DNA of 64,000 bases from assembly GCA_031268795.1 (NCBI GenBank), contig JAIRWT010000008.1, forward strand, positions 66,487 through 130,486. The letters run 5' to 3'. The translations under genes and the position numbers were made by a program. Below, piece after piece: positions 26,630-45,711 of this stretch. Under the pieces are notes generated by a model. That model saw only the letters and a list, made by a program, of their open reading frames with translations. It ran no database searches and was not told the origin of the DNA. The stretch comes from Puniceicoccales bacterium (GTDB taxonomy: Bacteria > Verrucomicrobiota > Verrucomicrobiia > Opitutales > JAIRLM01). Each line of letters opens with the position of its first letter. Within the stretch, counting starts at the first letter, position 1.

Positions 26630-28297
26630 TTGACATGTGCGCACTTTTTGACATATACGCATGGCATGAGTTTAAGTTTACATGGATTGGGCATTCGACA
26701 GAATGGATCCAAATTTTTCACTAGTGATGCAGTAGATGCCCTCGCCGGGGTCACATCCGAATGTTCTGTTTCGCAAATATTAACACTTCGTACATGTCCG
26801 AATGGCAGGTGTTTGCCACCGAGTATTTGGCAAAGTGCAGATACTTTTGCCGCAAGTATTGGTCGAATTGTTCAAATCGACACAAGAGAAGAGCGTATTC
26901 GCCTTCTTAATTTGTTTTTTCCAAAGGCTAAACATAAACATGTCGGAGCAGCTGCGGAAACAGAAGGAGCAACACTGAAATTTGTTGCCTGCGGCGTAAA
27001 TGCAGTTGTCGCCCATTTATGTTTCAAGGAGGAAACAGTCTTAGAAATGGCGGAATCAATTGCCGAATTGGAAAAAGTATTCGCTTTTTCCTGTGAGCGT
27101 TTCCGAGAAAATGGGTTCGGGCAAATACCGAGGCGTCTCTGGGAAAAATATATTGCGTGCTATACGGAGCTTGTTTGCAGAAAACTTTCTGCTAATCTTC
27201 AGCGAATTTACGTGGATTTAGCCAGCGTTCCGTTATCATTGCGGCCTGAGGCTCTTCACCTTGGGGCGCCTGATTACTTGGCAAATATGGTGAGCCATTG
27301 TAGCGGAATTTGTCTGGGGCAGGAGCATGGAAATGCTGAAAATGCTTTGATAATTTTGCAAGAGGTTGGCGAATATCAAAGGCGCATGAGCATGCGTTCA
27401 GTGCCGTCCGGATATCGGCCAATTAATATGACAATTGGGCGATTTAATGAGCTGACGCGCTTATATAATTTTATTGAAAAGTTTACTATGCTTAATTCCT
27501 TTGCGTCAAAAAATTACCCAACCGCTTTTACTGCATTAATTGCATCAGCTCAAATGGGCGTACCTATTCCTTTTACATTTTGGAATGCATTGGCAGCGGA
27601 GCCGAATTTTACCGGAAAAGATTATGCGAACTTTGACGCCAGGCAATTAATATACAATTCTCCGGTCGTTAGCCCTCAGGTGCGAGCGGCAGATCAAACG
27701 AAGGCTTTTGAATTTTTTGATAGACTTCGCGAGACGGACGACGTAATTAAGCAAATTCTTGCATCCAGCGTAATAGCCGATCTTACTATTTTTAAAGACA
27801 TGTTTCGCGATCATATTGAATGGCATATTGGTGAAGAAACAGTAATTTCATCCCTTGACATACGAGCATCATATTCTCCGGTTGAGGCTGTGTTAAGTGC
27901 TTTACTCGAAACATTTCCTAGAGAAGTGGCTTTGCGGATTTTTCGGACCATTTGTTTTTACCCGTGGGCACAGGGCGAATGTCCACGCGTTATTCTTGCC
28001 GCAAAAGATACTTTAGCAAATGTGGAGCTACCAAACGATGTAAAAGATGTACATATTGCGCAAGTATTTGATCTTTTTTCGGACGGAAGAGGCAAAATTG
28101 TTATTTTGGTCCGCGAAAATGGGACTGTCGAAATTATATCGATGTCAGCACAAGGCGGACCTCTAAAAGAATCTATTATGGCGAGGGCATTTGGGTATGT
28201 ATGGGATCATCCGTATTCATTTTTTTACACACACCTAATTGCCGACCCATTTGGAGGTTGCGAAATATCAGAGGCAATGATGGCGTACCACACGTAA
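26630..28297 (+). CDS. hypothetical protein (555 aa ORFan)
   Basis: Long clean ORF with a TTG track start (ATG at 26666 is an alternative) and an AT-rich upstream region. I recognise no family. It is convergent on sctL with a 6-nt gap. Confidence 0.55.
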   Translation: MTCAHFLTYTHGMSLSLHGLGIRQNGSKFFTSDAVDALAGVTSECSVSQILTLRTCPNGRCLPPSIWQSADTFAASIGRIVQIDTREERIRLLNLFFPKAKHKHVGAAAETEGATLKFVACGVNAVVAHLCFKEETVLEMAESIAELEKVFAFSCERFRENGFGQIPRRLWEKYIACYTELVCRKLSANLQRIYVDLASVPLSLRPEALHLGAPDYLANMVSHCSGICLGQEHGNAENALIILQEVGEYQRRMSMRSVPSGYRPINMTIGRFNELTRLYNFIEKFTMLNSFASKNYPTAFTALIASAQMGVPIPFTFWNALAAEPNFTGKDYANFDARQLIYNSPVVSPQVRAADQTKAFEFFDRLRETDDVIKQILASSVIADLTIFKDMFRDHIEWHIGEETVISSLDIRASYSPVEAVLSALLETFPREVALRIFRTICFYPWAQGECPRVILAAKDTLANVELPNDVKDVHIAQVFDLFSDGRGKIVILVRENGTVEIISMSAQGGPLKESIMARAFGYVWDHPYSFFYTHLIADPFGGCEISEAMMAYHT

Positions 28298-34509: not shown

Positions 34510-37500
34510 ATGGATGCCGGAATTACATACACCGCCAGAGTCAATGCTCATCTCGAACACTTGGCGGCTTTGAGCACATATGAAGTGGTGTCCTTTGTGA
34601 CGCACGTAGAATTATTTTTTGCCTATAGAGCTCGTGTCGCAGCCGCTGCCGCAATCTATAACATCTTTGCCGGCGCACTGTCCGCATTACGGGATGTGAC
34701 GAAAGGTTCCCTGGAAGATGTGGAATTGCGCGCGAATGCAATTGAGTTGTTACAACAAATCGGATGTGGGCATACGCGGGAAGATTTGGATAGGATGACG
34801 TTGGACGAACTTATGGAAGTCCGCAAGCAAGTATTACAGTCCTCTGCTGATTCTTACCGGCAATATGTTTGTGCTATCAATAATATGCGTATATGCATTG
34901 CCTCCTCATCCCAAGTGCCGAAGAGCGGCAATCCTGTGGCAATTGCTTTTCATATCTGCGCGTGGACGTTTTTTGGTACGGTAATATGCTATTTCGTGCT
35001 GTCTCCCGTTTTTAATGACTTCCTCGGCAAGACGAAATCCATGGGCTCTGCGCTTTTCGAAGTTGCGGCAATGGAGCCGGAAAAGCCATTTGATCTCAAG
35101 CCATATTGCGATTTTACGCATAAGCATATAAATGCTGATGGTATTACGGAATTGCAAAAAGCCGCTAGGAGCTTGGTTGACCGAATACAAAACGATGCTA
35201 TATCGGTAAAGCCCTCGGATCATAATGCCCAGAACGCTTTTCCGGTTTTGGCGCCAGCGGTGGATGCAACTCCGGATGAATGGGCGGCATTTTATGATAC
35301 TTGCGGATGTAAATTTGCTCGCAGAGAAGACATTTTTACAAAAGCGGAGGATATACCACCGCTGACGGAATGCACGGCAAATGCCATAGCACAGCAACTT
35401 ATAGACGTCCCATCGCGGCACTATGATTATAATGGGTTCAAATGCATGATGTGTAGAATTTTGTGTTTGCCCAGTATGGATTCCGAGCAAATGCGACATC
35501 CGACGGAAGATGTCCGGGCAAGGGTGACAGGCTTTATAATTGCTTGTGGTGCTGCGGCAACGGCGGTCGGAGACGAATCCGTGCATCACAGATTGCGAGG
35601 AATTTGCGACGACCTTTTCTTCGCTTGTAATCTTTCCGGGTTGATTCCTGGCCATTATATCGAAAGACGATATAAGGAAAATCACCAGGAATTAAAATTT
35701 TCGCAATTTCGGTGCTCTCGTTTTTCCCCAAAGGTTCACCATGACATGGGCGGTGAGGCCAGTACCCAACAGGAAGCCATAGAGCAATATCCTCGATATG
35801 CATTTATGCAGTACGTTGATGATTTTGATGCGTATACCAGAGCCATAGAAGATAATTTTAGCGTTTACGCGCAGGATAGCGAAGCACTGCACCTCATTAG
35901 TTCCTGTTTCCATGAGCATCATGGCATGCACGATAGGGCGTCCTCGTGGATGAGGGGGTTTGTTAAACGGCGAATGAGGCACTGGGAAGCTGTGCCAAAT
36001 TCAAACAGCTTGCACCAAGTTTGTTCGGCGTTGGAGCTCCTCTTGGTATGCGGTGCTGAGTCGAATTCGGATATTGAGCTGCCTTGGGATGGATTGCCAA
36101 ATGACTTGGATGAGCAGATTAGTGGTTGGCCGCGCGATGCGAGTGGGAGAATGGGCATTATGGAACAGCGCCTACTTCTGGTGTGGGGTGTGGTCAAATT
36201 TCGCTTTGGCAAACCCCTTACCGCCCTCGAACGCGAATCTTTAGCCGTAATAAGCATCGATCCATGCAATGGAATCTTTCCGCACATGTACAATTTGCCG
36301 GCTCAGGTTGATATTCCGAATCAGCCTGTTGCATCCGTGGGATGCGATATTGCTGCCGACTACCGCAAGAATGGGCTTTTTCATCCGGACGTATTTTTTT
36401 GCATTCCATGCGTTCGAAACCCGTTTGATAATATTTCCAAGGATAGATTCGAGGCTTTTGGACTGCAAATTCCGCCTGGCGTTGAGATAGATTGGAGAAA
36501 TGGAGTGTTGCTTGGCAGAGACGGACGCACGCTCAAGCCATCGGGAGAAAATCCAGAAATTTTAATGTATTTCGTGAACCGCTTTAGAGGCAGCCAATTT
36601 AGCTATTGCCAAGAGGATTTTTTTGGCGAAAAGGCATTTGAAACACGCGGGACAGAAGTATTAGTTGATGGTATTGTATCCATTGACATGATATCCGGAA
36701 TAGCACGGCATAGGGATGCTGGAGAATTCGTTGATTTACACATGCCTAGACTTTCTCGAAAATTAGTAGCTTTCCGCAAGAAAAACGATGCCGGGAAAGA
36801 AGTTGTAAGGTTTTTCTCGTTATATAATCTCAATGACGAAATATTCCGCATGGAAGATGGAGAGCTTCGTTCGGCAACAAATCCGGAATGGACAATAGCG
36901 CCTTGTTTCGCGGATACATCCAAGAAAATCGGTGCCGCCTTAGATATTGATATGCCGCCCGAAGCCATGGTGGCATTTGACGAAGAGGGTAACGTTATGG
37001 AAATTATTCCAACCTGGCAAGAATGTGTGCATGCCACATCAGACGGCAATGTTCGATGCGGGATTCCGAGGTTTGTTCGGTCCGAAACCGGCGAAATGGA
37101 AGGGCGCGTTGACGGAGCGAAGAAAAGCTGGTGTCTTACATGCAATGAAGCTTTGAATAGGTCGCTTCCGGCGGAGCGCATCCCCGGAAAAGGTCTTTTA
37201 ATTTGTGCGGGAGGGCGTGTTTTAGTCTCGAACGACGATTGTGGAGGTTGGGACGTCGATGACATTTTAGAAGGCCGAAGAAGATTTGGACGAGAAATGG
37301 GTGAGTGGCTTTCTCTTAGCAAAGATCATGATGGGGCCGTGCAATTTGATGGCCGCATTTGGGACCATAATACACACTGGAAGATTCAAAATTTATGCAA
37401 AATAGACTTTTATAATAGGGAAAAGGCTATGCGACAATTAAGAACGGTCACCTCTTTTTGTGAAATCTCCGTTGAGGATCATTGGACTAGAAATTACCCA

Positions 37501-40500
37501 AGTTCAAATGAGGAACTTCCGGAAGTGGAAGCACTGCTAAACTGTTTTTTGCACTTTCGGCAAATGGACGACATGGAAAGCGCCATCTTGTCTGCGAAGG
37601 CCGTAGTTGCATTATGTGCAATTACGAACTTTTGCCATGTCAATATATGCAACATAATAGGCGATGATATCCAAAAAGATGATATCATCAAAGAACGCAA
37701 CGCTTTTTTTCTGGAAAAAAAAGATTTGCTATGCGAAATTTTGTCTTTAGCGAACGCCAGTCGGCGTTGTCTGCTTGATGTAACATGCCTCCGTGTATGT
37801 GAAAGCAGTATTAATAGAGTGCATCCAGGGATCTTTAAGCATTTTCGCGGAAGTGAATATTTATATGGGGCCGATAAGGAAGCTTTATCTCGCGAATTGG
37901 ATATGCCTTCGAAAGTCTCGAAGGTGGCAAAGCCAATGCATCTTCTTTTTTACAAGCCGCCACAACTTTCGTGGCGAAAGTCATTTTCATCCGTTGTTTA
38001 TAAAATGGATGCGCATGGAAATGCCATCGGCGAATTTGTGGAGGTTGGTGAGGAACTATTCAATTTTGCCGAATCCGGTGTGGCGGCCGTGGCGCGCATT
38101 GCTCCATGGGATGGGCATCGTGTTGACAACGATCATCAAACGCCAGATAGCGGAGATGGCACGGATGATAACCTTGGTTCAGGCAAAACGGCGCAGGCTG
38201 TAGCTGCTTTACGAAGGCGTAAACGAGACGAAACCGCACAATATGCGGATATCCGCTTTGGGAGTTTTCTCAATGCGAGTGGCCTCAAAATGGATGATGT
38301 TGCGCCGGATAAATTTCAAACGCTTTCTGAAGCCGAAAAAGATAATTTGCGTCAAAAATTAGAAGATGCCAAAAAATCAATTGCCGATAGTCGTCAGAAG
38401 ATTCGAGACCATATAGAGGCCACACGTGCGGCCATTGAGGAATCTTTTCAAATTTTGACTAACGAGGGAAGACAAAAATGTTTTTTAGGAAAATACAAAC
38501 CCCTTTCTGTTTATAAGCTAGTCAATTGCGCACTTAAATCGTTTAATCACAGAGGGCAATGTTTTAGTGTTAATGGCTTCGTTGCGGCGTGCGAGAATGA
38601 ATGCGGAATTCAATATTCGGCAAGTGACGCTAAACGGGTGCTGTGTGCGCTTGAAAGTTATATGTGTGGAAAAACGGCATTGGATGAGGTTGCGAGACGG
38701 GAAAATGCATTCGAAAATTTGCATACATATATGTTGCAAAACTTTATTGAAGCAGATGGCGGAAGTGCACTTGAGCTTCGCGAAAAATTTGGCGCCTTTG
38801 TGCAGGCCGTTAGTTGCGTGCGGGCTTATGATCCGGCAACGGAACAATTTTTCTTGCTTTTTGAATTCCTTTCTGGGCTGCGCATGCGGCAAGAGCAGGT
38901 TATTATTTTGCGAAAGATGTATAGCGCAATGCGCACTAAGGACGTTATAGCATTTGTGTATGAAATGATGATGGGTGCCGGGAAAACGTCTGTTGTAAAC
39001 GTGATGCTTGCGGAAATTCTTGCCAGCCTTGGCTCAATTCCAATATTTGTAAATCACCAATCTTTGCAGAAGACCATGACGCGAGATCTTATCAAATACA
39101 CAATGGATCGCTATGGAAAGGATGTAATCGAAATACAGCTAACACCGGCAACTCTTAGTGCCTCACGTCTCATCTTGGGCATTCTGGAAAAATTAGAACG
39201 TGCCAGTTTGGATGGCTCCTTCGTTTCCATGACAAATACGGATGCAAGACTTATTTGGGTCCAATTGCGTAAACTCGAGGCAACATATGCGGACAGGGTG
39301 CGAAATTCGCCCGCTGGTGCCGGGCTGAAGAAGCATAGTGTCATACGCTACTTTGATGATGGAGTTGAAACGATTGAATTTAGGGGTCCCAATGGAGAGC
39401 GTCTCACGAACGATAAAGCGGAATCTTTAGCGTATGAACTTGAGACTCAGGATCTCAACGAAGCCATTAAAAGCTTAAGAATATTATCGGACTATATTAA
39501 GACAAATTGTGCGATTATTAACGATGAAGCCCATGCAAATCTTGATCCAACTTTCTCACTTAATATTCCATTCGGCGGCAAAGAGGGCTTCACGGATTTG
39601 CAACGGCGGACACTTACATCCATTTTTAGCGTAATTCATGCTAATTCCGCACTTTTCGAAATTGTTGCAGGAGGCCTTGGTTTTGAGCCGGAGCACCTGA
39701 GAACTATCACAATAGGAGTATTTGCGGCCATGGGGATTGATGCAACAGATCCAGATTATGATACATGCTTACAGTATATATTATTTGATGAGAATAATCC
39801 ACCGGATGACGCTGAACAATTTCGTGCCCAATGGGACAATATCCGAGAACGACTGGCTACCAGTAACCCGGAATTACTCGAAAGACTTGCCCTGCTGCGC
39901 GGAGAGCTTGGCGTGCTTAGGTTCGCATCGCGTAACGCATTGAACGGAAATTATGGATTTCGCATGGATGATTGCCGCCATACAAATGCCCCAAGAATTG
40001 GTAGTGATAATAGTAGCAAATCAAAAACGATGACTTGGAAATTGGGAGATAGAATTCCAAGAGTTGTTCCATATGTTGCGGCTAATACTCCATCAACGGG
40101 AGAGTATGCCCACCCGCTTGAGCGGGTAACCTATACCATGTTTGCCCACATGTTAGTACCCGTTCCGGAAAATGGGAATGATCCGGGACCCTTTGCGACT
40201 GAAATTAATCTCTTCATTCAATATGTATTGGGGCATCCAAAATCAGGTGCGGCAATGCATTTGGCGAAAAAATTTGGAAAAGGCGTATGGGATGAGCTTG
40301 TTACGAATAGTGTGGATATGGGAAAGCGGGATGCTGTTTTTCGCGAGATTTTCGATAGGACCAGAAGATTACTTATGGACCCGGAGGAGCGCACCGAATG
40401 TACCATATGGATAGTTGACAATAATGTGAAAACCTATCCTGGCATGATCGAAGGAACTGCATTCTTACAAGGAAATATATCAGGTTTTAATTTTGGATGT

Positions 40501-43500
40501 TCCGGTACACTTTGGAATTGTGATGCATTTGCTCACCCGTTTCGGACGGGAGAGAAGCATTTGGATGAAAGCATACTGCCACGCGTGGCCAGTAAAGCAA
40601 TCGAAGATGTACAATCTGGTTCCGCTTCCATTAGGCAACTGCGACCCGGGGGAGATCAATTAGGTAAGCTTTTAACGGAAGTAACGGAAAATCATTGTGC
40701 ATTCATAGATGTGGCTGGTGTCCTGAAGGATTACAGTGGTTTAGCCGTTGTAAGAGGTTTGCAAAAATTTCATACGGATAAAGGTATCACGCGGTATGAG
40801 GCATATGCGTTTTATGCGCCGGCGGGTGAGGTCGGCGAAGAAGAAGGTTGGTATCTTCTTTTGGCGAGCGGTGAAATAAAATTTTTACCAAATAATAGCC
40901 CGGATACAATTGCATTGATTGCCGGTGGTTGCACGAGAGAAGGACTTTTCGTTTACTTCGATCAAAGTCATTGTGTTGGTGTCGATTTTCAACTTCCCCG
41001 GCAGGGAAAGGCAACGATAACAATGCACCCGGATAAAACGAATCTTCACGCTGCCTTGCAAGGAATATTGCGAATGCGCGGATTTTTTACGACGCAAAGC
41101 GTAGATATACTCATATGCAGTAGCGACAGAACTTTTAACGGGATTTGTGAGTTATTTGATCGCCTCTCCGACAATGAACAAGCCATACTAAATATGCATC
41201 GCATGCATAATTATCGGATGGAGCTAATGGAGGCCGCCCAAAGAATTATGGAAGAGAAAGCCGCTAGGTTTTTCCGAATATTTAGATTTTTTATTGAACA
41301 TTGCCATACATGGTTCGGTTTTAGGTGGTTTTACCAACATTATTTATGGCTTTTGCAGGGCTGTGCGGAGCTTGCTATTACCAAAGCGCCGTTCAATCCA
41401 GTTGCATGGTATGGTCCACTGGCGGTGAGTGTTGATGCGGCGCATCATATAGGGAAGCAAAGGTGTTCCATCGCAGAAATATTGCGGCCATTTGGGGAAG
41501 ATGTGCAATTTCTTAGAAGAACCGCACAAATGTTTTCATGCATGTGCGAAGCGGTGAGCGGTACTTGCGTCCGCGCCATATGTTACGAAGGCCATGAAAA
41601 AGATTCGAAGCAAGTTGCTACGCAAACGGAAATTCAGGTGCAAGCGGAAACCGAAGCAGCGATGGAGCTAGAAATGACGGTTCCCAAGAGAAATCGAGGT
41701 GAATTTCGAAAAGAGACTGGAATACGCCATGCGACGCGAGAAAATCCCTTTGCGTGGCAGTTATTTGCAATGAAAGGTGCCGTCGAATTTCAACCAGGCC
41801 CTGAAGATACACAAACGGGTGATATCATCAAAGCAGCGGTAACGCCTCAGACAACCCGTGAAATGCTTCAGGAAAGAGTTCCAAGCTATAAAATGCCAGG
41901 AGCCATCACTTGTATGCAACGCCAGCTTACAGATGATGTTTTTAATGAGTTATTTCGGGCGGCAATGCTTGCGCATATGCCATTGTCTATTTTCGAGAAA
42001 AACTTATGCAATTTTGCAAAGAAACTCAACGCCATTTATAGCACGGCAGAGCTGCGTAAGGAGGAGCAAAATCCCGCAGAAAAACACATTACGCTTCCGT
42101 TGTTTGCGGACTCATATTCGGAGCATGTCAACAGAACTTTTGCCCACGAAACCGTGCATAAAATTTACAAATGTATCCGTAAATTCGAGCATGAATTCGA
42201 TGAATTGTGTGCAGGGACGAATAAATATAAAAAACAGAGGAAGGAAGGGCAACGGTTTGTCAATATGCCAACGCTTGTGGATCTGCTCAAAGATGATCTT
42301 TATAGGGAGATCTTAAAAGATGAAATCTCAAATGATGATAGCGAGCATGACATATTGGAAAAAGTGTTGTTTCCGGTTGTCCGTATTTTCGCAGAAAATG
42401 GCAAAAATGTGAAGCTAGATACATTGTTTGACGTTCTAGTGGTTGTGTTTAAAGAAGAAATTGGAGAGTCTGAAAAACAGGCAATTATGGCACTGGTTGA
42501 TACTGTCTGTGAAAATTTTATTAGTGAGTATTGTTCTGGTGCGAAAACAATTTGTTTGGTTTTAAAGGCCTTATTTAACTTACTTCTGCCACCGCAACCG
42601 GATAATGCGCCGGGAAACCTTGCTAAGTTAGCACTTATCGCTACAAACGGCGCTTTTTATACGGATTCTCAGGAAGTAGCGACTTTGTGCAATATGATAT
42701 TTGGCAGTCAATTTAGTCCAGGCAATCAATACAATGTTGAGAATGCGCTGCGGCTAATAACCTGTAATGGTCTACTTAGCGAAGCCCGTTTGCAGATGTT
42801 GCCAATTAAAGCTGTTAGGGATTCGGTTGAAGCGTTACTTAAAGAAACACAACGGCAGATTGTAAAACTTGGCGGAAAAACATTCGATACGTTGAAAATT
42901 TATGATGGAGAGCATGTCAAAAACGCTATCGCCGGTATACGCTCCGTCAATTCATGGCTGCAAGAATATTGGCCGGAATTGCCCGGAGTTTTCCCTCAAA
43001 CTTTTTTCGCCTCAGATAATTTTACCCACGCATTTACCGGTGACAACGACCCAGTGTCGATGGACGCACGTCATGCCCAGTATATACTCATCTGTAGAGA
43101 TTCTCGTGGGGAGTTTCAGCGTATTTTCGTAACTCCACAAGAAGCGAAAGATTTCGGGAAATTGATTGAGTCAGGAGATTTGGTTGATGCGCACATTTAT
43201 ACCGCACACGGTGATAGGGTGCCTTACAGATGGCCGTGTGAGCCTGAGGAAAATCCCGAAACCGATCCGGATTGGGGTGGTACGCTAAAGCAGGCAAATG
43301 AGCAGGCAAAAGAAGCTGTACTTTTTGTGCAGCTTTTTAATGGAACACTTACGCCGGAAGTTTTTCAAAGAAATCCAAAATTAATTCCTCGGTATAACAG
43401 CTTGATGCGCGGTCATGGCGGCTTCATTTCGGTTGTGGAAAAATGCGCGGAAAAAACGCGCCAGGATACATCTTGGATGTCATTTCCTGTCCAAATTTCT

Positions 43501-43557
43501 AAAAAGTGCAGAAGACGAAGGGGGGTGGGCGGCGCCAAAAAAGATGCCGCTGCATAG
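34510..43557 (+). CDS. giant protein (3,015 aa) with central DUF3638/DUF3645-type P-loop/DEAH ATPase module
   Basis: One uninterrupted 9,048-nt ORF. Motifs: hydrophobic helix at aa ~143-168; LLFEFLSGLRMRQEQ...MMMGAGKTSVV (Walker A, ~38965-38991); IINDEAHANLD (~39517-39540); LFVYFDQSHCVGVDFQLP and LQGILRMRGF (40945-41086). The flanking ~1,400-aa N-terminal and ~750-aa C-terminal regions match nothing I recognise. Confidence 0.85.
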   Translation: MDAGITYTARVNAHLEHLAALSTYEVVSFVTHVELFFAYRARVAAAAAIYNIFAGALSALRDVTKGSLEDVELRANAIELLQQIGCGHTREDLDRMTLDELMEVRKQVLQSSADSYRQYVCAINNMRICIASSSQVPKSGNPVAIAFHICAWTFFGTVICYFVLSPVFNDFLGKTKSMGSALFEVAAMEPEKPFDLKPYCDFTHKHINADGITELQKAARSLVDRIQNDAISVKPSDHNAQNAFPVLAPAVDATPDEWAAFYDTCGCKFARREDIFTKAEDIPPLTECTANAIAQQLIDVPSRHYDYNGFKCMMCRILCLPSMDSEQMRHPTEDVRARVTGFIIACGAAATAVGDESVHHRLRGICDDLFFACNLSGLIPGHYIERRYKENHQELKFSQFRCSRFSPKVHHDMGGEASTQQEAIEQYPRYAFMQYVDDFDAYTRAIEDNFSVYAQDSEALHLISSCFHEHHGMHDRASSWMRGFVKRRMRHWEAVPNSNSLHQVCSALELLLVCGAESNSDIELPWDGLPNDLDEQISGWPRDASGRMGIMEQRLLLVWGVVKFRFGKPLTALERESLAVISIDPCNGIFPHMYNLPAQVDIPNQPVASVGCDIAADYRKNGLFHPDVFFCIPCVRNPFDNISKDRFEAFGLQIPPGVEIDWRNGVLLGRDGRTLKPSGENPEILMYFVNRFRGSQFSYCQEDFFGEKAFETRGTEVLVDGIVSIDMISGIARHRDAGEFVDLHMPRLSRKLVAFRKKNDAGKEVVRFFSLYNLNDEIFRMEDGELRSATNPEWTIAPCFADTSKKIGAALDIDMPPEAMVAFDEEGNVMEIIPTWQECVHATSDGNVRCGIPRFVRSETGEMEGRVDGAKKSWCLTCNEALNRSLPAERIPGKGLLICAGGRVLVSNDDCGGWDVDDILEGRRRFGREMGEWLSLSKDHDGAVQFDGRIWDHNTHWKIQNLCKIDFYNREKAMRQLRTVTSFCEISVEDHWTRNYPSSNEELPEVEALLNCFLHFRQMDDMESAILSAKAVVALCAITNFCHVNICNIIGDDIQKDDIIKERNAFFLEKKDLLCEILSLANASRRCLLDVTCLRVCESSINRVHPGIFKHFRGSEYLYGADKEALSRELDMPSKVSKVAKPMHLLFYKPPQLSWRKSFSSVVYKMDAHGNAIGEFVEVGEELFNFAESGVAAVARIAPWDGHRVDNDHQTPDSGDGTDDNLGSGKTAQAVAALRRRKRDETAQYADIRFGSFLNASGLKMDDVAPDKFQTLSEAEKDNLRQKLEDAKKSIADSRQKIRDHIEATRAAIEESFQILTNEGRQKCFLGKYKPLSVYKLVNCALKSFNHRGQCFSVNGFVAACENECGIQYSASDAKRVLCALESYMCGKTALDEVARRENAFENLHTYMLQNFIEADGGSALELREKFGAFVQAVSCVRAYDPATEQFFLLFEFLSGLRMRQEQVIILRKMYSAMRTKDVIAFVYEMMMGAGKTSVVNVMLAEILASLGSIPIFVNHQSLQKTMTRDLIKYTMDRYGKDVIEIQLTPATLSASRLILGILEKLERASLDGSFVSMTNTDARLIWVQLRKLEATYADRVRNSPAGAGLKKHSVIRYFDDGVETIEFRGPNGERLTNDKAESLAYELETQDLNEAIKSLRILSDYIKTNCAIINDEAHANLDPTFSLNIPFGGKEGFTDLQRRTLTSIFSVIHANSALFEIVAGGLGFEPEHLRTITIGVFAAMGIDATDPDYDTCLQYILFDENNPPDDAEQFRAQWDNIRERLATSNPELLERLALLRGELGVLRFASRNALNGNYGFRMDDCRHTNAPRIGSDNSSKSKTMTWKLGDRIPRVVPYVAANTPSTGEYAHPLERVTYTMFAHMLVPVPENGNDPGPFATEINLFIQYVLGHPKSGAAMHLAKKFGKGVWDELVTNSVDMGKRDAVFREIFDRTRRLLMDPEERTECTIWIVDNNVKTYPGMIEGTAFLQGNISGFNFGCSGTLWNCDAFAHPFRTGEKHLDESILPRVASKAIEDVQSGSASIRQLRPGGDQLGKLLTEVTENHCAFIDVAGVLKDYSGLAVVRGLQKFHTDKGITRYEAYAFYAPAGEVGEEEGWYLLLASGEIKFLPNNSPDTIALIAGGCTREGLFVYFDQSHCVGVDFQLPRQGKATITMHPDKTNLHAALQGILRMRGFFTTQSVDILICSSDRTFNGICELFDRLSDNEQAILNMHRMHNYRMELMEAAQRIMEEKAARFFRIFRFFIEHCHTWFGFRWFYQHYLWLLQGCAELAITKAPFNPVAWYGPLAVSVDAAHHIGKQRCSIAEILRPFGEDVQFLRRTAQMFSCMCEAVSGTCVRAICYEGHEKDSKQVATQTEIQVQAETEAAMELEMTVPKRNRGEFRKETGIRHATRENPFAWQLFAMKGAVEFQPGPEDTQTGDIIKAAVTPQTTREMLQERVPSYKMPGAITCMQRQLTDDVFNELFRAAMLAHMPLSIFEKNLCNFAKKLNAIYSTAELRKEEQNPAEKHITLPLFADSYSEHVNRTFAHETVHKIYKCIRKFEHEFDELCAGTNKYKKQRKEGQRFVNMPTLVDLLKDDLYREILKDEISNDDSEHDILEKVLFPVVRIFAENGKNVKLDTLFDVLVVVFKEEIGESEKQAIMALVDTVCENFISEYCSGAKTICLVLKALFNLLLPPQPDNAPGNLAKLALIATNGAFYTDSQEVATLCNMIFGSQFSPGNQYNVENALRLITCNGLLSEARLQMLPIKAVRDSVEALLKETQRQIVKLGGKTFDTLKIYDGEHVKNAIAGIRSVNSWLQEYWPELPGVFPQTFFASDNFTHAFTGDNDPVSMDARHAQYILICRDSRGEFQRIFVTPQEAKDFGKLIESGDLVDAHIYTAHGDRVPYRWPCEPEENPETDPDWGGTLKQANEQAKEAVLFVQLFNGTLTPEVFQRNPKLIPRYNSLMRGHGGFISVVEKCAEKTRQDTSWMSFPVQISKKCRRRRGVGGAKKDAAA

Positions 43558-43726
43558 AGAATTTCAATCGGCGATTGAAAAAATTAGTCGGCGAAGATTC
43601 CAAAAGCGGAGGAGAAGCTGATCGCCATCGATTTTTGGGCAAAAAAATTTCAACAACTTTTTTGCATGATTGGAAAAACAAACTTATATTAAAGGTGGAA
43701 GGGGTTTCCAGAGAAAAGGATATGTT

Positions 43727-44416
43727 ATGGCAGAGTTGACGGAAGAGCAGATGGAGATGATTGAGGAGATCGCCGATCAAGTGGCCGAAGAGGTAATTAA
43801 GGAGGAGCCGCCAAGTGGGCTTGAATCGCGGGAAAAGCTCAAGGAACGGCGCAGAATTGAAATTCAAAAGGTCTTAGTAGAAGGCGAACGTGTCGCCATG
43901 GATGGTGTGGATCTTTTTTTTAACAAAGATGAAAGAGGTGTGGCGAAGGAAATTTTTGGGCGCGTTCGCTCCGTGCTGCCAGGCCTGATGAATTTGCCGC
44001 CGGAAAAGCAAACATTGAAAGGTGTCCTCACCGAGGCCGACTATAAGGCACTCAACGCCATTGCCATGAAAAGCTATGAGGAGGGGGATTTTAAATCGGC
44101 GAGTTCCATGTTTTCAGTGATTGTTCGGTTATTTATCGAAGAAATTCAAATTCAGCCGTTCATCATGTTGGCGTTGTGCGAGTGGCAGACAAATGGCATA
44201 GAGGCGGCAACGAAAATTTATGAACTCTATATGCAAATGTTTGAGGATCCTCTGCTTTGTTACTACGCGGCCGACTGTTTTGCGAAGGCAAAGATGACCA
44301 ATGATGCGCGCAATGCCATCGATAAAGGTCTTGAATATATTCGCGCGGGGAAGGTTCTCGAAGGCCGCGATGAATTGGAAGGCGCGATGAATAAATTGAA
44401 AAGCGAATTACACTGA
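43727..44416 (+). CDS. SycD/LcrH-like (class II) type III secretion chaperone with acidic N-terminal extension
   Basis: The TPR pattern ...ALNAIAMKSYEEGDFKSASSMFSVIVRL...MLALCEWQTNGIEAATKIYELYMQMFEDPLLCYYAADCFAKAKMTNDARNAI... is colinear with SycD/LcrH (GLGACRQ...FHAAECLL.KGE). An AAGGA sits 6 nt before the ATG at 43727. Confidence 0.6.
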   Translation: MAELTEEQMEMIEEIADQVAEEVIKEEPPSGLESREKLKERRRIEIQKVLVEGERVAMDGVDLFFNKDERGVAKEIFGRVRSVLPGLMNLPPEKQTLKGVLTEADYKALNAIAMKSYEEGDFKSASSMFSVIVRLFIEEIQIQPFIMLALCEWQTNGIEAATKIYELYMQMFEDPLLCYYAADCFAKAKMTNDARNAIDKGLEYIRAGKVLEGRDELEGAMNKLKSELH

Positions 44417-44544
44417 TCCACTTAGTGATTAGATACGAATTGTTGGATCCATGGCATGGATTCATCTGGTGTTTTGAGCGCGCTTTGGCGCGCTAAATTT
44501 TTTTGCGGAGGGATACTTCCAACTGAAATTCCGGCCTTGATAAA

Positions 44545-45711
44545 GTGTGTCCAAAGTGTGGTGGTAGGCGCGATAAAATTATGGAAAGCCTCGATTGCAC
44601 TTTTCCCGTGGAAGGTCTTTTCCGAGCGGCTGGCGGAAATACGCCCGCACGCTTACTAGACCTATCCCGCAACGGCAAAATGACCGGTAATGATATTTTG
44701 ATTCCGCTGTCATTGGTGCAAAAGCTGCGACTGCGCACGGGGCAATATATTTCCGGAGAGGCAGCAAATGCTGGAAATCCCAATCAGAGGCGATTAGTGC
44801 GCATCAATGCAATTGATGGGTTGCCGATCGATCGGCGGCGATTTTGTATGCCATTCCAGCGGGCAACGACCACATCGCCTGAGAAAATGTTCCACTTGGA
44901 GACGGGAACTGCTCCGCTGTCTACGCGGATAATTGATTTTTTTGTGCCGATTGGACGCGGGCAAAGGTGCATGATCGTCGCACCGCCAAAAACGGGAAAA
45001 ACCATTTTATTGCAACAGATTGCCCGTGGAATTCTCCAAAATCATGGCGACTGTCATTTGATGGTGTTGCTTGTGGATGAGCGACCGGAGGAGGTTACGG
45101 ATTTTAAGCGCAATGCGCCGGTGGAAATCTTCGCCTCGTCCAATGATGAGGCAATTAAAACGCACATTGAAGTGGCCCAGTTGGCATTTGCGCGGGCGGA
45201 AAATCTAGTGGAAACCGGTCGACACGTGGTGCTACTTCTTGATTCGTTGACGCGTCTGGCACGGGCGATTAACAATAATTTGGGGCGCGGTGCTGGAAGG
45301 ACAATGACCGGCGGCCTTGATCCACAGGCATTGGAAAGGGCGCGGCAGTTTTTTTCTCTTGCTCGCAATACCGAAGAGATCGGAAGTTTAACCATCATTG
45401 CGACCGCACTCATCGAAACAGGAAGCCGTATGGATGAGGCAATTTTTCAAGAGTTGAAAGGTACGGGAAATTGTGAGATCATTCTTGATCGTAAGCTCGC
45501 CGAAAGACGCATTTTCCCAGCCATCAACATCCCTGCGTCCAGCACCCGCCGCGAGGAATTGCTCCTTGGTGCGAAAGAGCTTCAACTGAACCAATTGCTT
45601 AGGCGTTCATTCGTTGGGTTGTCGCCGGAGGATGCCATGGAAGGGTTGGTGAATCGTTTGAGCAAAACGGCAAGCAATCGCGAGTTCATGGATTTCATTG
45701 CAAAGCGTTGA
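44545..45711 (+). CDS. rho: transcription termination factor Rho
   Basis: Rho CSD-like RNA-binding region (ILIPLSLVQKLRLRTGQYISG), Walker A APPKTGKT, and the Q/R-loop region through ...RIFPAINIPASSTRREELL. The start is either the GTG at 44545 or the ATG at 44581. Confidence 0.9.
   Translation: MCPKCGGRRDKIMESLDCTFPVEGLFRAAGGNTPARLLDLSRNGKMTGNDILIPLSLVQKLRLRTGQYISGEAANAGNPNQRRLVRINAIDGLPIDRRRFCMPFQRATTTSPEKMFHLETGTAPLSTRIIDFFVPIGRGQRCMIVAPPKTGKTILLQQIARGILQNHGDCHLMVLLVDERPEEVTDFKRNAPVEIFASSNDEAIKTHIEVAQLAFARAENLVETGRHVVLLLDSLTRLARAINNNLGRGAGRTMTGGLDPQALERARQFFSLARNTEEIGSLTIIATALIETGSRMDEAIFQELKGTGNCEIILDRKLAERRIFPAINIPASSTRREELLLGAKELQLNQLLRRSFVGLSPEDAMEGLVNRLSKTASNREFMDFIAKR

Follow-up and report, generated by a model that had tools for sequence, protein, structure and literature searches.

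A giant DUF3638-family protein with a divergent superfamily-2 ATPase core, encoded near a chlamydia-type injectisome operon in a Puniceicoccales genome

The window analysed here is a 64,000-nucleotide stretch of DNA from the metagenome-assembled genome (MAG) Puniceicoccales bacterium (contig JAIRWT010000008.1), and our subject is the giant gene that it contains. An earlier note on this DNA had described the gene as encoding a DUF3638/DUF3645-type ATPase with a dedicated type III secretion system (T3SS) chaperone next door. We confirmed that the window holds an uninterrupted open reading frame (ORF) at 34510–43557 on the plus strand, which starts with ATG and encodes a protein of 3,015 amino acids (aa), as the note had reported; the identical protein in NCBI is LBI34_01680, annotated as a hypothetical protein. 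By our own arithmetic, a run of 3,015 codons without a stop has a chance probability of ~(61/64)^3015, roughly 1e-63. The giant gene starts 86 bp past trxB (33413–34423, plus strand), which encodes a thioredoxin-disulfide reductase and lies directly upstream on the same strand. Divergent from the giant gene, an injectisome operon comprising sctL, sctK, sctJ, sctI, a cdsG-like gene, sctF and sctD occupies 28304–33367 on the minus strand, and its CdsG-family match marks it as chlamydia-type. The operon start and the giant gene are separated by 1,143 bp, consistent with the distance of ~1.1 kb given previously, with trxB in between. Downstream, at 43727–44416 on the plus strand, lies the gene for a 229-aa SycD/LcrH-like tetratricopeptide repeat (TPR) protein (LBI34_01690).

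The conserved motor core of the giant spans aa 1390–2400 (38677–41709; this and all further features of the giant are on the plus strand) and carries the motif series of a superfamily-2 (SF2) ATPase with two RecA domains. A Q-motif-like F..FE..G.R.R..Q and the Walker A sequence MMMGAGKTS together occupy aa 1447–1493 (38848–38988), within the region matched by Pfam DUF3638. They are followed by the Walker B sequence or motif II, DEAH, with invariant D and E (aa 1672–1675, 39523–39534), the motif III-like GCSGTLWN (aa 1996–2003, 40495–40518), LFVYFDQSHCVGVDFQLP, which forms a motif V-like strand and loop in the second RecA domain (aa 2146–2163, 40945–40998), and the motif VI-like LQGILRMRGF (aa 2183–2192, 41056–41085). 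Conservation of the core was read from alignments of 14, 30 and 62 sequences. Across the 14 full-length relatives, F1451, E1452, Q1463, G1489, G1491, K1492, D1672 and E1673 are invariant, and so are G1999, T2000, N2003, D2151, G2157, D2159, Q2184, R2188 and R2190; expressed as motifs, the invariant sets are F/E...Q (Q-motif), GxGKT (I), DE (II), GT..N (III), D..G.D (V-like) and Q...R.R (VI). The motif series listed in the earlier note is thus present with its key residues invariant, and in the stretch that had been called arginine-finger-like, Q2184, R2188 and R2190 contribute the candidate arginine fingers. The Walker A sequence reads MGAGKT, that is, the AxxGxGKT style of SF2 helicases and not GxxxxGKT.

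An AlphaFold model of aa 1390–2400, built with 30 family sequences, is of high confidence (pLDDT 85.4, pTM 0.81). The model places the P-loop in a strand–loop–helix arrangement and the DE residues where a strand ends. Between motifs II and III lies an insertion of ~300 residues, mostly helical, that holds the DUF3645-equivalent strand described below; the second RecA domain follows the insertion and is itself followed by a 46-residue helix. A Foldseek comparison of the core model with the PDB gave 13 matches at E ≤ 1e-3, all 13 of them SF2 motors. The best match was Bacillus subtilis SecA (3jv2_B; E = 2.9e-6, probability 1.0, TM-scores 0.34/0.43), followed by DinG, Rad3/XPD, RIG-I, DdmD and SNF2 remodellers, with CRISPR-associated DinG also among the matches. 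In sequence searches, weak Pfam ResIII matches appeared in 4 of 14 family members, and the PDB profile searches returned a non-significant PriA match at the Q-motif/Walker A stretch. Since the model is confident, the Foldseek matches are exclusively to SF2 proteins and the catalytic motifs are invariant, the core as modelled is a complete SF2 ATPase, very divergent and outside every characterised SF2 family, and it is probably active. Homology to SecA at the level of sequence was also considered and was rejected: hhalign against E. coli SecA gave a probability of 1.2%, confined to the Walker A region and no better than the SNF2 control RapA (0.5%), and no SecA match was obtained in the PDB, Pfam or NCBIfam.

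The assignment to a family rests on two profiles. Pfam DUF3638 (PF12340) matches the giant at aa 1439–1540 with E = 1.4e-8 and 34.8 bits (gathering score 31), the match spanning only the first half of the profile (positions 3–101 of 225), and the same profile was matched in all 14 bacterial relatives scanned (best E = 9e-19). Pfam DUF3645 (PF12359; gathering score 25 bits) gave no match at E ≤ 0.1 in the giant or in these 14 relatives. The family's own profile puts 'VVPYVAANTPSTGEYAHP...' (aa ~1850–1885) on the stretch that Pfam calls DUF3645 in a eukaryotic relative, P0170: the consensus 'vvPYaaaNtPSsGeYAhP...' of the family hidden Markov model (HMM) aligned to residues 3241–3278 of this protein (domain iE = 1.2e-16), in which Pfam DUF3645 covers 3243–3274, and BLAST on another eukaryotic relative, P0169, led to the same placement. 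We therefore regard VVPYVAANTPSTGEYAHPLERVTYTM (40057–40164), the best-conserved block of the entire protein, as a divergent DUF3645 equivalent. The DUF3638/DUF3645-type core proposed in the earlier note is accordingly borne out by the above-threshold DUF3638 match and by the family profile but not by the Pfam DUF3645 model; and LFVYFDQSHCVGVDFQLP, which had been taken for DUF3645, is a conserved family signature but lies ~300 aa past the DUF3645 equivalent, in the second RecA domain. On sequence grounds, the core is a member of the DUF3638/DUF3645 module family. The orthologues already carry the NCBI name 'DUF3638 domain-containing protein'. To this existing family the present analysis adds a fold for the core, a position for the DUF3645 equivalent, a survey of where the family occurs in bacteria, evidence that linkage to an injectisome operon is conserved, and grounds for rejecting the chaperone pair.

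To delineate the family, we used aa 1300–2450 as the query in an exhaustive HMMER search (threshold E ≤ 1e-3), which recovered 557 relatives, nearly all of them 2,000–5,000 aa long. A word-indexed homologue search returned only the protein itself when queried with the whole sequence and seven proteins when queried with a 14-sequence alignment. The closest relatives (core identity 49%, 40% and 32–34%) all derive from Puniceicoccales MAGs and include a paralogue in the same MAG, LBI34_00035; the nearest orthologue is 42% identical, and the next tier includes proteins from Chlamydiales and Chlamydiae MAGs. A locus scan with the full-length alignment, covering one genome per GTDB species, identified 80 related loci, of which 42 belong to Chlamydiota (Parachlamydiaceae, Rhabdochlamydia, Simkania and others), 20 to Puniceicoccales, 3 to other Verrucomicrobiota, 4 to Bdellovibrio/Oligoflexia/delta-type bacteria, 2 to Coxiellaceae and 1 to Francisellaceae, with 8 unclassified. 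Several genomes have two or three copies of the giant gene. Three separate copies each are present in Chlamydiales bacterium 38-26 (L023, L024, L079), in a Simkania negevensis isolate (L037, L044, L066) and in a Rhabdochlamydiaceae MAG (L045, L054, L061), and one scanned relative has added leucine-rich repeats; the chlamydial copy number and these repeats suggest diversification of the kind typical of host-interaction families.

The earlier note had linked the module to giant fungal and protist proteins in which it occurs together with a papain-fold deubiquitinase, and giant eukaryotic proteins do share the module. Thecamonas trahens AMSG_00592, which carries thioredoxin-like, DUF3638, DUF3645 and EF-hand domains, is named 'ubiquitinyl hydrolase' in UniRef; further eukaryote-type relatives were found by alignment-based search, and one eukaryotic relative has a UBA-like domain. 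Pfam describes DUF3638/DUF3645 as a eukaryotic family. Judged by the relatives recovered, the family is common to eukaryotes and host-associated bacteria, the latter mainly Chlamydiota and one Puniceicoccales clade. The function of DUF3638 is still described as undefined (PMC12615304), and DUF3638 is an expanded gene family in microsporidia (PMC5423893). In the literature searched there was no paper on bacterial DUF3638/DUF3645 proteins, and PF12340, IPR022099, PF12359 and IPR022105 gave nothing. The view that the module is undescribed in bacteria holds for this literature, but NCBI, as noted above, already names the orthologues after DUF3638.

Outside the motor, conservation is uneven. The N-terminal region (aa 1–1390, 34510–38679) is specific to the Puniceicoccales clade, whose giant proteins are homologous over their whole length, and is not common to chlamydial or eukaryotic relatives; conservation along the giant is lowest in the first ~400 aa. 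A model of aa 380–1400 (pLDDT 61) contains a helical domain (aa ~420–670), a beta-rich domain (aa ~710–880) and further helices, with no significant fold match in the PDB or in the viral structure library BFVD. The N-proximal hydrophobic helix reported earlier is present at aa 142–168 (34933–35013; Kyte–Doolittle maximum 1.82), but it is common only to the three closest orthologues, the paralogues having a charged segment at that place. A conserved C-terminal block (aa ~2826–2946, 42985–43347) is common to more than 40 family members, including Chlamydiales, and its profile gave no match in the PDB. Pfam and NCBIfam scans detected no nuclease or other effector domain in the giant, and no protease or deubiquitinase (DUB) match was found in the giant, 13 relatives or two scanned eukaryotic relatives. 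No cysteine column reaches ≥70% conservation outside the motor, and the sole histidine to do so is H734, at 70%.

The giant ends in Ala-Ala-Ala followed by the stop codon (43546–43557), and the terminal Ala-Ala is conserved across the clade, in which the C-termini read KKDAAA, APAA, QVAA, AMAA, SIAA, GEAA and LRAA and the preceding residues are not conserved. This ending is found in 19 of 163 family proteins, including one that derives from the single-cell genome of a marine Chlamydiales member; members with it include P0001–P0006, P0011–P0013, P0071, P0094, P0106 and P0129. Of the 43 long ORFs in the window, only the giant itself ends in this way. The terminal Ala-Ala resembles an ssrA-like C-terminal degradation tag.

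The arrangement upstream of the giant gene recurs in other genomes. The order sctL..sctD (minus strand), trxB (plus) and giant (plus) is kept in two other MAGs, making three genomes in total, and the Sct proteins of those MAGs are 72–90% identical to those of the window. In all three orthologous loci trxB lies directly 5′ of the giant gene on the same strand (8966–9910 in L001 and 8807–9802 in L002). Adjacency to the injectisome was seen only for the orthologue group P0001/P0002/P0003. No paper in the literature searched links Puniceicoccales with type III secretion. Two eukaryotic relatives have N-terminal thioredoxin-like domains (P0169, aa 32–121; P0170, aa 356–452), which together with the trxB neighbourhood could hint at a redox link or could be a coincidence.

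Since the earlier note had paired the giant with the downstream TPR gene as cargo and dedicated chaperone, we examined the TPR gene in the same detail. The likeness to SycD/LcrH exists but is limited: the protein matches NCBIfam TIGR02552 (LcrH_SycD) at aa 101–203 with E = 1.5e-11, but its 44.1 bits fall below the cut-off of 104.8 bits. In PDB sequence searches SycD (E = 0.16) and PcrH (E = 0.4) came closest, neither of them significantly, and Pfam gave no match. The acidic N-terminal extension of ~100 aa is real and conserved. TPR orthologues occur in more than 20 MAGs, are always ~229 aa long and 65–83% identical, carry the JGI name 'tetratricopeptide (TPR) repeat protein', and display across 16 MAGs a near-invariant stretch of 45 residues (RLFIEEIQIQPFIMLALCEWQ.NG......K.Y.LY.QMFEDPLLCYYAADCF). 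Elsewhere these orthologues are found beside rho/lpxK, or with der on one side and an ABC transporter on the other, and neither a giant gene nor an injectisome gene lies within 10 kb of them; rho is their most frequent neighbour, and in the window, too, it follows the TPR gene (44545–45711, plus strand). Conversely, searches of 20 Puniceicoccales loci with phmmer (E ≤ 10) and tblastn turned up no SycD-like ORF beside the giant gene, so that surveying the phyletic distribution of the pair, as the note had proposed, uncovered no second instance of it among these loci. Both orthologous loci retain the synteny upstream (sctL..sctD, trxB, giant), and the next gene there encodes a CBS-domain membrane protein.

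The TPR gene has an upstream region of its own (43633–43726, plus strand), in which identity to loci without the giant gene is ~93%; the similarity covers ~95 bp before the TPR start codon, and the sequences are unrelated further upstream. This region contains a promoter-like TTTGCA-N18-TATATT site (43661–43690, plus strand), and a terminator-like hairpin of six GC pairs (44477–44494) with a T-run follows the gene (44477–44504, plus strand). The class II chaperone-binding motif P-x-L-x-x-P does not occur in the first 500 aa of the giant. Because the pairing is absent elsewhere, the TPR gene is conserved alone and has its own upstream region, and P-x-L-x-x-P is missing from the giant, we read the TPR gene from these sequence comparisons as a separate transcription unit that is not the giant's dedicated partner. 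The TPR protein would serve a conserved client, most likely the translocators or an apparatus or regulatory component, rather than the fast-evolving giant specifically.

Several smaller features of the surroundings were recorded. The locus tags skip one number between LBI34_01680 (giant) and LBI34_01690 (TPR), a sign that some further feature may be annotated in the 169-bp gap (43558–43726); the gap holds only small ORFs (68 and 77 aa, plus strand) that overlap the end of the giant gene, and small ORFs (57–80 aa) are also called directly upstream of the TPR gene in two other loci (L081 and L082). A conserved protein of ~890 aa without a Pfam domain recurs near the giant gene (L001, 19882–22554; L002, 19786–22470; both minus strand); the TPR-gene locus L081 encodes an unannotated protein of 889 aa (1008–3677, plus strand). 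Within the window, a 555-aa ORF directly beside sctL (26630–28297, plus strand) and a 967-aa ORF (6037–8940, minus strand) could be assigned to no family; the latter has no more than a weak TonB/SslE-like stretch rich in proline. Either may encode another effector or secretion-related protein.

We favour the reading, with a probability of about 0.55, that the giant is an exported effector that acts in a eukaryotic host as an ATP-driven polymer motor. Its destination would be the cell of a eukaryotic host, most likely a gut protist, and its route would probably be the adjacent chlamydia-type injectisome. In the host, ATP hydrolysis would drive translocation along, or remodelling of, a polymer, either nucleic acid or polypeptide, and the giant would either imitate what the host's own DUF3638 proteins do or interfere with it. 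Targeting would fall to the clade-specific N-terminal 1,400 residues, in which the hydrophobic helix of this orthologue group could serve as an anchor in a host membrane. We prefer this reading because of the conserved injectisome-operon arrangement, the host-associated distribution, the eukaryotic relatives, the paralogues (each genome carries two or more), the variable N-terminus and the lack of a match to defence models. An ATP-dependent enzyme, we infer, must work in a cytosol. Related Verrucomicrobia of the termite cluster are endosymbionts of protists (PMC8204192), and by analogy the host is plausibly a termite-gut protist. The effector role suggested in the earlier note is plausible in this light, given an arrangement kept in three genomes and a family concentrated in host-associated bacteria.

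A number of observations weigh against the effector reading. The place of the MAG in the protist-associated cluster was deduced solely from isolate codes and the literature. Since trxB intervenes, the adjacency of the operon and the giant gene could be incidental, and the paralogues and chlamydial members have no injectisome genes within ±10 kb. Some of the 80 loci belong to lineages without a known lifestyle. With regard to the motor, the TM-scores to solved structures are low (0.43 at most), no sequence-level link leads from it to a characterised SF2 family, and sequence searches of the PDB with the single protein and with full-length, core and C-terminal profiles gave nothing significant. 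Finally, the N-terminal model is mediocre, and enzymatic domains may lie in that region.

Of the alternatives, an intracellular function, in which the giant would work inside the bacterium as a helicase or translocase for genome maintenance or mobile-element defence, or as a SecA-like motor, deserves the most attention, although on balance we consider it doubtful. The SF2 core itself is compatible with such a role, as are the fold matches to DinG, to CRISPR-associated DinG and to DdmD, a helicase of plasmid defence, and the paralogues and chlamydial members are not beside secretion genes; the conserved Ala-Ala end, if it is taken to resemble a bacterial degradation tag, would fit a cytoplasmic protein whose level is controlled. 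However, none of 5,027 defence-system models (PADLOC) matched the giant or the TPR protein at E ≤ 0.1, and a nuclease or other effector domain was not detected. The family is moreover common to eukaryotes, with its bacterial members concentrated in obligate or facultative intracellular lineages, an N-terminal region that is very large, fast-diverging and confined to one clade is typical of proteins that interact with a host, and reduced symbiont genomes would rarely keep several housekeeping paralogues of 9–10 kb. More speculative, and unlikely in our estimate, is the idea that the module is not a nucleic-acid helicase but a SecA-like motor for polypeptide threading or unfolding, perhaps linked to ubiquitin or thioredoxin: an ancient eukaryotic machine that would have been captured repeatedly by intracellular bacteria of at least three phyla (Chlamydiota, the Puniceicoccales symbiont clade, and Coxiellaceae/Francisellaceae) and would now be injected as a giant effector that hijacks the corresponding pathway.

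The proposal of the earlier note, that the giant is a T3SS effector or membrane-inserting substrate and that the TPR protein is a dedicated chaperone which binds its N-terminal hydrophobic region, now looks very unlikely. It drew on a nearby injectisome operon, on the resemblance of the TPR protein to class II chaperones, on the hydrophobic helix at aa 142–168 and on the adjacency of the two genes on the same strand, and it is also helped by the strong terminator-like hairpin lying only after the TPR gene. The pairing is, however, missing from both orthologous loci and from all the Puniceicoccales loci examined, TPR orthologues reside at rho/lpxK or der/ABC transporter without a giant gene nearby, and the upstream region of the TPR gene and the lack of P-x-L-x-x-P speak for independence. 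The rates of evolution do not match either, given that a protein with 65–83% identity and a 45-residue invariant stretch would have to serve an N-terminus that is the giant's least conserved part. We attach least credence of all to a DUB effector, in which a papain-fold ubiquitin hydrolase hidden in the N- or C-terminal region would be coupled to the ATPase. Its appeal derives from the UniRef name of the Thecamonas relative, from the UBA-like domain in one eukaryotic relative and from the wealth of DUB effectors in chlamydia-like bacteria (PMC9741609, PMC10643670). Yet the papain-like domain that the earlier note had proposed to look for was found neither by the family scans nor by the fold search with aa 380–1400, the model of which has no papain-like match in the PDB or viral structure library; there is no conserved cysteine outside the motor and a single histidine at 70%; the N-terminal 1,390 aa are not common to the chlamydial or eukaryotic relatives; and the DUB papers do not mention such ATPases. 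A possible link to VTD-type DUBs was dropped, the VTD paper and the Simkania DUB survey both making no mention of such ATPases.

What makes the effector reading worth pursuing is the family to which the giant belongs. DUF3638/DUF3645 is a widespread giant eukaryotic family without a known function in the literature searched; our model suggests that its module is a complete, very divergent SF2 motor, with SecA as the closest solved fold. The module is common in host-associated bacteria, above all in Chlamydiota and in a verrucomicrobial symbiont clade with chlamydia-type injectisomes, and one orthologue group is stably linked to the injectisome operon. Giant eukaryote-like proteins in chlamydia-like symbionts are not surprising by themselves. 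If these proteins are effectors, they would be among the largest known, they would target a conserved host pathway across phyla, and they would offer intron-free bacterial genes for the experimental study of the motor; and should the notion of a captured SecA-like machine hold, the bacterial versions would make it practicable to work out what the eukaryotic family as a whole does. For annotation, the consequence is that the SycD-like neighbour should not be labelled as the giant's chaperone.

Compared with the class II T3SS chaperones SycD, LcrH, PcrH and IpgC, the TPR protein is similar only over aa 101–203, far below the family cut-off; it has an extra acidic N-terminal extension of ~100 aa, and its gene is not beside translocator genes in any context seen. 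In size and setting the giant recalls the lymphostatin LifA/Efa1 of enteropathogenic E. coli (EPEC) and the chlamydial cytotoxin, which are proteins of ~3,000 aa encoded by single ORFs in bacteria with injectisomes and bring enzymatic modules that act in the host cytosol. These proteins carry glycosyltransferase and protease modules and not a DUF3638 motor, and no homology of the giant to either was detected in Pfam, NCBIfam and PDB sequence searches.

The two-RecA SF2 fold with accessory insertions that is predicted for the core is also that of DinG, CasDinG, Rad3/XPD, RIG-I, DdmD, the SNF2 remodellers and PriA. Unlike the DinG/XPD-type SF2 helicases, to which it has no significant sequence match, the giant has no conserved cysteines for an Fe-S cluster, and a nucleic-acid-binding accessory domain was not recognised in it. 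The likeness to SecA extends to a DEAD-like motor of two RecA domains, a large insertion that separates motif II from motif III, and a long helix that follows the second RecA domain; in SecA, the position of the insertion is occupied by the preprotein cross-linking domain, and the helix is a long scaffold helix. This resemblance is architectural and not decisive, as DinG/XPD score nearly as well in the model comparison. The TM-scores are low, a sequence-level relationship is lacking, the insertion of the giant is mostly helical, and the giant, three times the size of SecA, is no housekeeping component of the Sec system.

The closest parallel is with the giant DUF3638+DUF3645 proteins of eukaryotes such as T. 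trahens AMSG_00592. Identity between the two groups is ~18–30% and limited to aligned blocks, and the Pfam DUF3645 model detects the eukaryotic version but not the bacterial one. Additional thioredoxin-like, EF-hand, UBA, SPRY or kinase-type domains occur in the eukaryotic proteins but not in the giant, and the N-terminal 1,390 aa of the giant are specific to the Puniceicoccales clade. Common to both are the giant size, the same motor module and the same order of motifs: F.FE..G.R.R..Q, MGxGKT, DE.D/H, [VI]P[FY]...PS...[EY][FY][AG]HP, SGT, F.[FY][FY]D..H..G.D and QG..R.RG.

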